Shown here: positions 9,001 to 12,000 of the stretch, piece by piece
Layout of the letters: each line of letters opens with the position of its first letter
Position numbering within the stretch: the first letter of the stretch is position 1
Assembly: GCA_044359535.1 (NCBI GenBank)
Contig: JBIKLZ010000015.1
Location: 1 to 22,238 of the forward strand
Source: Chlamydiia bacterium
GTDB lineage: Bacteria; Chlamydiota; Chlamydiia; Chlamydiales; 2-12-FULL-49-11
Direction of reading: 5' to 3'
Length of the DNA: 22,238 bases
Made by a program: the position numbers

Positions 9001-12000
9001 TTTCTATCCTTTCAATAGCCCTGACAAAAATGATATATGAAAAATTAGGGGTGGGTCTATCCACTTCTGGAACCCTTGTCACCCTCCATTTTTTTCTCCT
9101 CCTTTTTTTACTTAGGAAAAAGGGAAGACAGATCCATATTGAGGCACAAGAATGAAAAGGATTGCACTATTTGGTTCAACAGGGTGTGTGGGGAGAAAAA
9201 CTTTAGAGGTCATTGATTGTTTTAAAGATGCTTTTAAAGTGGTAGCATTATCGTGCTATTCAAACACCTCTCTTTTAGAAGAGCAAAAGAAAAAATACTC
9301 TCCTAAATTTATTTTTATCGGTTCTAAAAAAAATCCCCTTTCTTTGGAAGAGATAGCCAGTCACCCTGATGTGGACATCTGTGTTTTTGCAATGGAAGGA
9401 TCTGAAGGTATTTTAGCTGCCTTTGCAGCCGCTAGTGCCTGTAAAGAAATCGCCTTAGCTAATAAAGAGATTTTAGCTTGTGCAGGGGAGGCGTTTATGT
9501 CCTTATGTCGGGAAAAGGGGGTAAAAATTGCCCCCTTAGACAGTGAGCACAGTGCAATAGAGCAATGTCTTTTGGGGGAAAAAGGTGAAGATGTCCACAA
9601 ATATATTTTAACAGCATCTGGGGGGCCATTTTTTTCAACCCCTCCAACCTATGAAAAGGCTTTTACCCACCCTACCTATAGATGTGGAAAAAAAGTTGCT
9701 GTTAACTGCTCTACTTTAATGAATAAAGGGTTGGAAGTGATTGAAGCAAAACATCTTTTTAATATTGATAATGATCAAATTGATGTGGTGATTCATCCCC
9801 AAAGTCTTGTTCATAGTTTTGTCTCATTTAAAGATGGGGCTGTAAAAGCCTTTTTCGGTAAACCCGATATTCTTCAAGCGATTCAATATGCCCTTTTGGG
9901 GGGGGAAAGAAGAAAAGGGGTGATGGCTCCATTTGCTTTTGATCGATTTATGCAGTGCACCTTTTATCCCTATGACAAAAAAAAGTTTAGATGTTTACAG
10001 TTGTCTTTTGATGCTTTGAAAGAGGGGGGAGCATATCCAGCTTATTTAAACGCTGCAAATGAAGTATTAGTTGATCGTTTTTGCAAAGGTGGTGTAAGCT
10101 GGGAAGCTATAGGTGAAAGTTTAGAAGAATTAATGAATAAGGGTTCTATTTCTAAAGACAGTTCTTTAGAATCGGTATTAGAAACAGATAAGCAAGCACG
10201 TAGAGAGGCTGCAGCATTTTCAGCAAGGTAGGGGTATGAGTCTAATTAGTATTTTATTTTCAATTTTTGGATTAAGTTTTTTAATTTTTATCCATGAATT
10301 AGGACATTATATCATGGCCAAACGTGCAGGGATGACAATTGAAGTCTTTAGTATTGGAATGGGAAAACCTATTGTCTCTTGGGTAAAAAATGGGGTGAAA
10401 TGGCAAATATGTTATCTTCTTTTTGGGGGCTATGTAAAAATTGCTGGAATGGAGGGGGAGGATGGAAAAGAGCCTTATCAGATACAGGGGGGATTTTATA
10501 GTAAAAAGCCTTTGCAGAGATTGCTTGTTGCTGGTGCCGGCCCTTTTGTAAACATTGTATTTGCCCTTATACTTTTTACTGGAATCTATTTTGCAGGGGG
10601 GGAGAAAAAACCCTTTTCTCAGGTTACAGCAATTATTGGAAAAATGGATCCAACCTCAGAGCTGTATTCTAAAGGGATTAGGGAAGGGGATGTAATTCTT
10701 TCTATAGAAGGAACCCCTTATGAGAATTTTCGTGATGTGCTGATTCAAGGGATGTTTAAAGGTAAAAAAGAAGTTGAGGTAAAAATTCTTTCACAATCAA
10801 AAGGGGTTGTCGATAGTATTGTCCCTTTATATAGTCTAGAGGAACATCAAAGGGCTGAAATGTTTCCTAAAGAGTGGAAATCGATGGGGATTTTAGCCCC
10901 AGCCTCGTTTGTGATTGCCGATGGATTTGACCCTTTAGCAGAAAGTTTTGCCCCCTTAAAAGAGTCTTCCTTAAAAAAGGGGGATCAAGTGGTCTATGTT
11001 GATGGGAATATCATTTATTCGGTATCTCAATTAAGTGCGATCATCAATAGTGATATTGCCTTAGTCACAATCGTAAGGGATGGGAAAAAAATGCATATCC
11101 AAGTCCCTCGGATTGTTTTAGGCGATTTAAAATTAACTGATGAACAAAGGGATGAGTTTGTCGATTATAAAAGGGAGATCGATTTAGATGGAGCTTTTGC
11201 CTCTACCTATTTTATTCCCTTTTTAATCAGTGAAGGGCTCTTTATTAAAGAGCCATTGCTCTTTATTGATGATGAAGAAATCGGAAAGGTCCCTCACCTT
11301 GAAAGGGGAGATAGAATCATTGCTGTTTCAGGAATTGCAGTAAACAATCCCAAGGAATTTTATAAGGTTCTTGAAACAAGAAAATGTCTTGTGATGGTTA
11401 AAGAAGGACCAAGTGAGGACGTTTTATGGAAAGATGCCGATAAAGCCTTTTTTGAAGATGTGGATAAAAATGAAATTGCTTTAATGGAGGAACGTATTGG
11501 AGAAGATTTTTTGAAAAGCTCTTCTGGATATAGATTTTTAACACCGACAGAACCCATTTCTTATAAGAGTTTTTTAGAAAGAAAAAATCCTGAAGAACTA
11601 AAAAAGGTCCAAGAATCTTTTGATAAAAACGATTATGAAAAAAGATTAGCTCAAAAGACGCTGTTTTCTGGGGTCCTATTAAAAGATGAGCAGGTGATCT
11701 ATAATAAAGGGCCCTTTGCCCAAGCTAAGGATGTGATTAAAGATATTGCATTTAGCTTCAAAGGCCTTTTGACAGGGACAATAAGTCCAAAACATATGTC
11801 TGGACCTATAGGGATGATTAAAATTGTCCACGACGGATCAAAAAGTAGTATCATGACAGGTCTTTATTGGCTTGGAATGATATCCCTTAATCTTGGATGT
11901 ATGAATCTTCTCCCTATTCCTGTATTAGATGGGGGTCATATTTGTTTTACACTCTATGAAGTGGTGACTAAAAAAAGAATTCGAGCAAAGACGATGCAAA

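Follow-up and report, generated by a model that had tools for sequence, protein, structure and literature searches.

A Dxr homologue with a remodelled substrate pocket is retained in a chlamydial genus that has lost the MEP pathway

Dxr is regarded as committing substrate to the MEP pathway and as serving no other purpose, and fosmidomycin acts on it. Why, then, is an intact dxr gene kept by a genus of uncultured environmental chlamydiae in which this pathway has been lost? The gene was located at 9152..10231 (+ strand) in the window, the whole stretch of 22,238 nucleotides that was analysed from genome G000, and encodes a Dxr homologue of 359 aa with a remodelled substrate pocket. Upstream lie the genes of a troABCD-like metal ABC transporter (5104..9155, +). 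The end of the last one, with its stop codon, runs 4 bases into dxr, an arrangement present in all nine genus genomes and in G001. The gene for the protease RseP follows directly 3' of dxr (10236..12092, +; TIGR00054, 227.4 bits, above the cut-off).

Loss of the MEP pathway and retention of dxr

The family search covered 22 genomes, nine of the genus (G000 among them; completeness of the nine 68-93%) and 13 others. As stated in the first-pass annotation, dxs and ispG were found in none of the nine genus genomes, against 11 and 10 of the 13 others, respectively. The absence of ispE and ispF, earlier noted for three genomes, now extends to all nine (against 11/13 and 10/13). Neither ispH nor HMG-CoA reductase, both likewise reported missing, was found in the five genomes examined for them (three of the genus, G001 and G016). 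The claim that the sites of the missing genes are empty by gene order held only in part: in G000 the dxs and ispH sites are assembled and empty and another gene takes the place of ispE, but gene order is uninformative for ispF, the site of which is a contig end, and for ispG with its rearranged flanks. ispE is missing from its site in all three genomes read.

The genus no longer makes IPP and DMAPP. Since the pathway is lost while the downstream prenyltransferases are kept (uppS and polyprenyl synthase, each in 5/5 genomes tested), prenyl diphosphates are probably taken up from the host, in line with the earlier proposal. Comparable isoprenoid auxotrophy is described in passages on Rickettsia and Orientia (PMC5615194; PMC6854040), where no MEP or mevalonate route was found and downstream prenyltransferases persist; the genus differs in the persistence of dxr and in a TLC-family paralogue at the ispE site. 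This nucleotide-translocase paralogue occupies the site in 3/3 genomes read and is a candidate isoprenoid importer; a metagenome scan with its sequence returned a single locus, 98% identical. A passage of a 2019 paper called the rickettsial isoprenoid importer unidentified. Other literature searches, with subscription papers mostly outside their coverage, returned nothing relevant.

Loss of ispH alone is not unique, as had been cautioned: 14 of the 90 genomes in the chlamydial class sample are ispH-less. The retention of Dxr without the pathway is exceptional. dxr is universal in the family (22/22), as reported, and is kept in 11/11 pathway-less family genomes, against none of the 13 ispH-less genomes from seven other families. 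In 89 chlamydiae from outside the family, dxr is present wherever ispH is and absent wherever it is not (76 with both, 13 with neither). Non-isoprenogenic MEP pathways, which also keep MEP genes without IPP output, are described in passages on Listeria, where the pathway ends at MEcDP, and on Mycoplasmoides gallisepticum (PMC13001223). Both retain the upper MEP pathway nearly whole, whereas the genus keeps one true MEP gene, with no substrate supply and an altered pocket.

Fold, substrate pocket and selection

The product scored 306.9 bits against TIGR00243 (type I Dxr), narrowly missing the curated equivalog cut-off of 315.7. All 29 PDB sequence matches were DXR, and the three DXR Pfam domains were found. 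The three-domain DXR fold was confirmed at the level of a predicted structure, the AlphaFold model aligning to 6MH5 with a TM of 0.87 (Foldseek); its mean pLDDT is 81.7, falling to about 65-70 around the substrate loop, and it is uninformative on the substrate. The protein shares with type I Dxr/IspC (EC 1.1.1.267) the fold, domain set, NADPH motif, metal triad, phosphate ligands and place before rseP. It differs in its score and in the replacement of W212, M214, M276 and D221 (E. coli numbering), as well as in having neither Dxs for DXP supply nor IspE-H as product users.

The catalytic core is unchanged. All 19 listed catalytic and cofactor positions are the same in 23/23 aligned sequences of the lineage, including the metal residues D150, E152 and E231, the phosphate residues S186, H209 and N227 and the NADPH residues. 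Within the NADPH-binding motif GSTGCVG (residues 8-14; 9173..9193, +), G8, S9, T10, G11 and G14 are invariant in these 23 sequences, while position 12 varies among them and is Ser elsewhere. The metal motif DSEH (residues 130-133, corresponding to E. coli D150, S151, E152 and H153; 9539..9550, +) keeps Asp and Glu in 23/23; its Ser is His or Asn in 11 and its His is Gln in 8, the G000 copy being unchanged. The NKGLE motif (N227, K228, E231; 9722..9736, +), with phosphate and metal ligands, is invariant in all rows of both alignments.

The hydrophobic lid formed by W212, M214 and M276 is replaced entirely, none of the three residues being kept in any lineage sequence. The roles of these lid residues and of the metal, phosphate and NADPH residues are as described in passages of PMC9782300. 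The substrate loop HPTYRC (residues 173-178; 9668..9685, +), read as HPTYRCG over codons 9668-9688, retains H209 with Tyr for W212 and Cys for M214. Ile240 (9869..9871, +) stands for M276, a position held by Ile, Leu or Val in 22/22 lineage sequences having the residue and by Met in 116/116 others. Asn185 (9704..9706, +) takes the position of a conserved Asp, 221 in E. coli as counted by offset; Asn was found in 23/23 lineage sequences and in G001, and Asp in 116/116 others. The loop had been annotated as HPTY-x-C. Its Cys recurs in 9/9 genus copies, but the full motif fits only six, Trp having changed to Tyr in six and to His in three. With two more distant relatives added, the new residues prove not to be strictly fixed, being Tyr/His at 212, Cys/Val at 214 and Asn/Leu at 221. 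Twelve of the 13 other family copies retain the Trp, and G001 is the exception with Leu. The proposed tracking of pathway loss by this residue is imperfect: G016 is without dxs, ispE, ispF, ispG and ispH, yet its Dxr keeps Trp, Asp221 and Met276, with Thr for the loop Met.

By itself, Trp to Tyr is weak evidence for a new function, because a lone change of this Trp, to Tyr or Phe, is seen in Dxr proteins that are normal in other respects (P0098, P0282, P0186) and because a W203Y mutant DXR structure has fosmidomycin and NADPH bound (PDB 4OOE, entry information). Of the 68 sites that are invariant in the outgroup, 49 are retained in the lineage Dxr; for a control transporter of the same lineage the figure is 82 of 90. 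The sites lost from Dxr cluster at the pocket, and the second-shell residues S151, H153 and H257 vary. A change of S222 to Cys occurs family-wide and was discarded as a lineage-specific feature.

Purifying selection acts on the retained dxr. Its dN/dS was 0.10, 0.14, 0.10 and 0.145 in four closely related genus pairs, similar to the neighbouring rseP (0.13-0.17) and troD (0.09-0.12). The genus values are about twice those of pathway-intact relatives (0.04-0.09); two distant, near-saturated pairs gave 0.20-0.33. No stop or frameshift was found in the nine genus copies, which are 53-80% identical to that of G000, the copy of G011 ending at a contig end. Purifying selection, invariant catalytic residues and the loss of dxr in 13/13 other ispH-less chlamydiae favour the continuing non-isoprenoid role that the first-pass annotation had suggested.

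A TarI-like cytidylyltransferase and a TagF-like transferase

An 'ispD' had also been reported as kept, and a PF01128 gene is indeed found in 8/9 genus genomes; in the ninth, G007, its site falls on a contig break. Its assignment to the MEP pathway did not stand. The canonical ispD site (SWIB-ispD-truA) is empty in 10/10 genomes inspected, G000 included, and occupied in G015 and G017. By its sequence, the kept gene is best assigned to a TarI-like paralogue, here called IspD2, with 28-31% identity to canonical IspD copies. The best PDB matches of the G000 protein (contig C53) are the TarI proteins 4JIS and 6XHP and the Listeria paralogue 3F1C. Its scores lie under both curated cut-offs, at 166 against 181 for TIGR00453 and 114 against 166 for TarI (NF001183); canonical IspDs reach 62 and 85 on the latter. 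The motif HDAxRP carries Glu for Asp in four of the eight genus copies.

Of 30 loci read from other families, 22 carry IspD2 as a fusion with an SDR whose S..YxxxK motif is intact, and two of three fused orthologues pass the TarI cut-off of 166 (170.7, 169.9 and 164.5). From its domain order, this SDR half is probably of the Acs1/Bcs1 type. No orthologue of it was found in the 22 family genomes (control G066, E 5e-65), nor any ADH_N (TarJ-superfamily) gene in three genus genomes. A possible separate SDR half in G000 was rejected: the best match (213 aa, contig C9, 29% identity) shows no YxxxK where this motif is normally located, and the operon around it is unrelated. The IspD2 tree suggests several losses of the fusion; being a quickly built tree, open at its base, it does not fix the ancestral state of the family. 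No IspD other than IspD2 was found in five genomes that have dxs and ispE together with ispG or ispF, and their canonical site is empty; IspD2 therefore probably accepts the product of Dxr.

A TagF-like gene occurs in 20 of the 22 family genomes with its motifs intact; in G009, one of the two gaps, the site is on a contig break. The G000 protein (contig C5) matches PF04464 at 35.5 bits (cut-off 22.1) over a stretch of 103 residues and keeps PHGxSDK, LYAPxW and KxHP, which presumably correspond to the catalytic motifs of TagF. The gene was found in 54 of 90 chlamydiae sampled, with none in the 23 genomes of family f4. In other chlamydiae ispD2 and the tagF-like gene are linked by gene order and co-occurrence. 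ispD2 lies directly 5' of tagF-like and glycosyltransferase genes in G086, G054 and G061, and by hand tally the TagF-like gene is present in 37/39 IspD2-bearing against 16/50 other chlamydiae and, among ispH-less chlamydiae, in 8/8 with IspD2 against 1/5 without. LicD, considered as a consumer of CDP-polyol, was set aside with one occurrence in five genomes (G016 only).

These genes resemble the TarI/Acs1-type CDP-polyol route (for Acs1 function, passages in PMC4873967) in combining a TarI-like cytidylyltransferase with a PF04464 transferase and in the cytidylyltransferase-SDR fusion of other chlamydiae. They differ in the absence of the reductase half from the family, in Dxr as the proposed supplier and in being unlinked, with dxr, ispD2 and tagF-like at three separate loci in G000. 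Remodelled Dxr was also sought beside glycan genes in other bacteria. The loop was readable in 27 of 44 loci and remodelled in nine, all chlamydial, and none of the 44 had an IspD or TagF gene within 4 kb of dxr.

Possible roles of the retained Dxr

We tentatively favour, at a probability of about 40%, the reading that Dxr now supplies a polyol phosphate to a putative CDP-polyol surface-glycan route. Dxr would still be an active reductase of sugar phosphates, dependent on NADPH and metal, with a changed substrate. Without Dxs, it would most likely turn an intermediate of the pentose phosphate pathway into a polyol phosphate; zwf, gnd, rpe, tkt and tal were found in G000 by motif scan. Candidate substrates are xylulose 5-phosphate (DXP with one hydroxyl more), ribulose or ribose 5-phosphate, and erythrose 4-phosphate. 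Judging from the chemistry of their families, the stand-alone IspD2 would convert the polyol phosphate into CDP-polyol and the TagF-like transferase would add polyol phosphate to a surface glycan. Dxr would thereby stand in for the reductase half, which the family lacks and which most other chlamydiae carry as a fusion with IspD2. The family ancestor may have fed IspD2 with MEP from an intact pathway; the isoprenoid branch would then have been lost, the glycan branch holding Dxr while its pocket adapted. dxr, ispD2 and tagF-like are co-retained wherever the assemblies permit a test. If the substrate is allowed to be still DXP, the odds of this reading rise slightly above even.

Dxr might instead act on a new or side substrate whose product does not enter the IspD2/TagF-like route, the latter using glycerol 3-phosphate or imported polyol phosphate. 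We judge this unlikely, if worth serious attention. Six chlamydiae (G052, G054, G086, G087, G098 and G109) without ispH, dxr or an SDR-half orthologue have stand-alone IspD2 and TagF-like genes, which implies that this pair can be fed without Dxr. ADH_N genes occur in all five of these genomes that were tested and look like generic dehydrogenases, none being identified as TarJ. gpsA was detected in G000 by motif scan, making glycerol 3-phosphate an available alternative substrate of IspD2. The lack of linkage between dxr and IspD or TagF genes points the same way, and purifying selection with pocket changes would suit any enzymatic role. On the other side stands the co-retention of the three genes, and no other consumer was found: DXP made from MEP by reverse Dxr activity for thiamine or pyridoxal was rejected, as it would have no user, thiG and pdxJ motifs being absent from a motif scan of G000.

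Unchanged chemistry is an improbable alternative, in which DXP, supplied by the host or by some side reaction, would be converted by Dxr to MEP at low flux and by IspD2 to CDP-ME, the TagF-like enzyme transferring methylerythritol phosphate. The intact catalytic residues, single Trp changes in normal Dxr, the Trp, Asp221 and Met276 of dxs-less G016 and IspD2 as sole IspD in several pathway-bearing genomes all suit it. So does an MFS transporter gene two genes from ispD2, but this gene follows that of thymidine kinase, like the gene of the Legionella thymidine-salvage transporter PhtC (passages in PMC3920079), and its homologues bore no informative names. Against it also stand the absence of dxs from all nine genus genomes and the joint replacement of three lid residues and D221, confined to the lineage.

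It is somewhat less probable still that dxr is a slowly decaying relic under relaxed selection, held by translational coupling between troD and the essential rseP. The 4-base overlap in 9/9 genomes, the variability rather than fixation of several conserved sites and an omega above that of pathway-intact relatives would fit decay; dN/dS values equal to those of the neighbours, uninterrupted reading frames, 19 invariant positions and the loss of dxr from 13 other ispH-less chlamydiae do not. The caveat of relaxed selection raised earlier is thus weakened without being removed. A pathway overlooked in incomplete genomes, or completed by unrecognised enzymes, is very improbable in spite of the 68-93% completeness and the uninformative ispF and ispG sites of G000, given four genes each at 0/9, the assembled dxs, ispH, ispE and canonical ispD sites without their genes in G000, and an ispE site without ispE in 3/3 genomes.

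The supply of a polyol phosphate by Dxr can be taken further, although the result is a long shot: Dxr would be a xylulose 5-phosphate reductoisomerase or a pentose/tetrose phosphate reductase yielding a non-isoprenoid polyol phosphate, at its boldest 2-C-(hydroxymethyl)erythritol (apiitol) phosphate, that is CDP-activated and placed on a surface glycan, and the TLC-family translocase replacing ispE would import host prenyl diphosphates. If true, bacterial IPP uptake would thereby gain its first candidate at the molecular level; the paralogue can in any case be put to the test as the importer on which host-dependent bacteria are presumed to rely. 'ispD' calls in such genomes can mislead pathway reconstructions, and a polyol-phosphate glycan route is indicated in many environmental chlamydiae. 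A natural clade with the catalytic core kept and the whole lid swapped would show how the specificity of Dxr can change and, if the proposed supply holds, would link Dxr to the synthesis of cell-surface glycans.

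Loss of the isoprenoid pathway and retention of dxr

The genome under study (G000; 1.21 Mb, 92.6% complete) carries its dxr homologue at 9152-10231 of the window, its contig C17. The start of the gene overlaps the last stop codon of a troABCD-like metal transporter by 4 bases, and rseP lies directly 3'. The protein reached 306.9 bits against TIGR00243 (cut-off 315.7), yet its 29 PDB sequence matches were DXR without exception and its predicted fold is likewise that of a Dxr homologue. As the first-pass annotation had stated, dxr was kept throughout, in 22/22 family genomes including the nine of the genus. 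The loss of dxs and ispG from the genus was confirmed, each gene being found in 0/9 genus genomes versus 11/13 and 10/13 other family genomes, respectively. For ispE and ispF, a loss claimed from three genomes now extends to all nine (0/9 each versus 11/13 and 10/13). The same two family genomes outside the genus, G001 and G016, lacked all four genes. The claimed absence of ispH and HMG-CoA reductase held for the three genus genomes examined (G000, G006 and G010); neither gene was found in G001 and G016 either, and the ispH search was positive in the control G017. In G000 the flanking genes are adjacent at the empty dxs site (xseB and NAD kinase) and at the empty ispH site, and the ispE site is occupied by a different gene. 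Gene order was uninformative for ispF, which would fall at a contig end, and for ispG, whose flanks are rearranged.

Among 91 genomes drawn across the class, 90 were scored for ispH and dxr. Outside G000 the two genes coincided in 89/89, with 76 having both and 13, from seven families, having neither. Three ispH-bearing genomes (G070 and G091 of family f16, and G089) had low-scoring Dxr (profile 98-110 bits). All 11 pathway-less genomes of the family keep dxr; being kin, they are dependent counts and may represent two losses, one in the genus plus G001 and one in G016. G001 is the sister of the genus in the Dxr alignment (141 sequences, support 0.96).

A uppS gene and a polyprenyl synthase were kept in 5/5 genomes tested, and miaA was present in G000 by motif. 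Since these remain while the pathway is gone, we infer that prenyl diphosphates come from outside the cell, a supply like that described for isoprenoid precursors in Rickettsia (PMC5615194 and PMC6854040). One polyprenyl synthase copy was found in G000, G006 and G010, and two in the relatives G016 and G017. All three genus genomes in which the ispE site was found carry, in the interval from rplI to the following conserved gene, a TLC/NTT translocase paralogue (TIGR00769 E 5e-55, under the cut-off), located in G000 at C35:117685-119142 on the reverse strand (L335:3686-5143) and also in G007 (L308) and G006 (L340); in G010 and G001 the site lay outside the stretches read. In 5/5 pathway-bearing relatives, read at this site only, the stretch held ispE and no such paralogue. 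By position alone, the paralogue is a candidate prenyl diphosphate importer.

The window also encodes an NTP/NDP exchange transporter (2724-4340, reverse strand), to which at least seven genes of G000 are related. A 323-aa protein (12122-13093, reverse strand) is, by sequence, possibly host-directed: its N-terminal half is hydrophobic, and its C-terminus matches a RING finger weakly (E 0.0013, below the cut-off). Two tandem 166-aa proteins (13227-13727 and 13708-14208, reverse strand) matched neither Pfam nor NCBIfam; for the first, the Atlas neighbours were unnamed clusters (0.96), the nearest named one being PagP-like (0.94, PF07017 on 49% of members).

The retained IspD paralogue and a probable surface-glycan route

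The family has two PF01128 paralogues, canonical IspD and IspD2. Canonical ispD, located between a SWIB gene and truA, was found in 5/22 family genomes, and its site was empty in 10/10 others inspected, including G000. The view that the ispD of the MEP pathway had been kept was thus mistaken: the retained gene is the TarI-like ispD2, located elsewhere. IspD2 was found in 21/22 family genomes, the miss falling in an assembly gap of G007. TarI proteins rank first among its relatives of solved structure. The gene follows mcsA-mcsB and forms a unit conserved across the family with thymidine kinase and an MFS transporter (G000:C53:40160-42733; L074:14161-16734), the latter two resembling in arrangement the tdk-phtC thymidine salvage locus of Legionella.

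Outside the family, IspD2 occurred in 39/89 chlamydial genomes by a hand tally (at least 41% identity); the frame measured 435-537 aa in 30 of them, and the gene was stand-alone in nine. Of 30 loci read, 22 showed fusion to an SDR whose catalytic motif is intact; the nine genomes beyond these were classed by frame length only. The fused form has the same layout as bifunctional CDP-ribitol synthases such as Acs1 (PMC4873967). A search for orthologues of the SDR half, with a positive control, was negative in all 22 family genomes. Stand-alone IspD2 tracked MEP loss outside the family (6/8 ispH-less versus 3/31 ispH-bearing genomes). IspD2 was the only IspD found in five family genomes that keep other MEP genes (G018-G021 and G004; L088-L092) and in eight ispH-bearing genomes outside the family. 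It therefore probably accepts the normal Dxr product, and may do both jobs there.

A TagF/TagB-type (PF04464) gene was present in 20/22 family genomes, the others being G009, with a contig break at the site, and G005, which is 78% complete. Class-wide, it occurred in 37/39 IspD2-bearing versus 16/50 IspD2-less genomes, and among ispH-less genomes in 8/8 versus 1/5, although nominal P values for this co-occurrence overstate the association. In G086, G054 and G061, ispD2, the tagF-like gene and glycosyltransferase genes form a single run. Co-occurrence and gene runs together make it very likely that what retains IspD2 is an isoprenoid-independent route to a surface glycan by way of a CDP-polyol. 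Such a route would resemble Acs1/TarIJ plus TagF in its workings, with the defining reductase missing in this family.

Residue changes in the Dxr pocket

Dxr was compared in an alignment of 23 lineage rows (14 of them partly near-copies of genome-derived proteins), G001, G016 and 116 others. Position numbers absent from the section cited below were in part assigned by offset. D150, E152, E231, S186, H209, N227, K228, K125 and the NADPH glycines were invariant in the lineage. W212, Trp in 115/116 other Dxr, was Tyr in 15 and His in eight rows. Four positions uniform in all 116 others had also changed: M214 to Cys (23/23), M276 to Ile, Leu or Val (22/22), D221 to Asn (23/23) and H257 to Gln (18/23). 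In G016, W212, D221 and M276 were unchanged, and M214 and H257 replaced. The relevant section of PMC9782300 assigns W212, M214 and M276 to the hydrophobic pocket and its lid; the other residues that it names are metal and phosphate ligands.

Two of 149 further Dxr representatives joined the lineage and carry Val at 214 and Leu at 221. The new pocket residues are therefore not under strict fixation; elsewhere among the representatives, Trp was in some cases replaced singly by Tyr or Phe. The window protein resembles type I Dxr in its fold and its catalytic core and departs from it in lid residues and TIGR00243 score. We read the residue changes as an enzyme that would keep hydride transfer onto a metal-bound phosphorylated carbonyl, with the pocket opened where the carbon skeleton of DXP would sit.

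Possible supply of the glycan route by Dxr

Dxr, with a changed substrate, would supply the IspD2/TagF-like route, a reading to which we assign a probability of roughly 40%. In its favour, the family has a CDP-polyol route without the usual reductase, and Dxr is a retained member of an NADPH-dependent sugar-phosphate reductase family with no other client visible. The probable acceptance of its normal product by IspD2 also speaks for it, as does a motif scan by which G000 can make Ru5P, Xu5P and E4P. Against it, the SDR half is likewise missing from six chlamydiae that have no dxr but do have a stand-alone IspD2 and a TagF-like gene; in G000 the three genes lie unlinked; and glycerol 3-phosphate is an alternative substrate. 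Given replacement residues that are smaller or more polar, a pentose phosphate seems, on chemical grounds, a likelier changed substrate than erythrose 4-P; xylulose 5-P differs from DXP by a single hydroxyl.

The points against supply would equally suit an unrelated enzymatic role for Dxr, which we consider doubtful with no such client in view. That Dxr feeds the same route from DXP itself would agree with the probable tolerance of IspD2 for the normal product, but is unlikely beside the missing dxs and the altered pocket. Decay of dxr is also unlikely: fewer outgroup-invariant sites were kept in Dxr (49/68) than in a lineage control transporter (82/90), but Nei-Gojobori dN/dS was 0.10, 0.14, 0.10 and 0.145 in four close genus pairs (dS 0.7-1.4), similar to rseP and troD in the same pairs. 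Values were 0.20 and 0.33 in two distant pairs, near saturation, and 0.04-0.09 in six pathway-intact pairs. An artefact can hardly account for the anomaly, which is real and well controlled; the protein is a variant within the known Dxr enzyme family, with a role that is probably new.

Non-isoprenoid roles have been described for partial MEP pathways (PMC13001223, a text that does not mention chlamydiae). Searches of open-access literature listings found nothing relevant on loss of the MEP pathway or CDP-ribitol genes in chlamydiae, on a glycan donor role of CDP-methylerythritol or on Dxr acting on erythrose 4-P; these genomes might still appear in a survey table, for example Table S1 of PMC13001223.

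Sixteen genomes of the class sample, mostly of family f3, carry TagF-like genes but no IspD2. Fifteen of these possess the MEP pathway, and their donor could be CDP-ME or CDP-glycerol; in the other one, G059, a different NTP-transferase adjoins (L263:8705-9388). The genus has one TagF-like copy and most relatives a tandem pair. Genes near ispE in pathway-bearing relatives (L060, L061, L065), which from motifs we take to be rfaD-/rfaE-like (ADP-heptose), had no orthologous match in G000. Envelope synthesis seems to have changed together with the loss of the MEP pathway.
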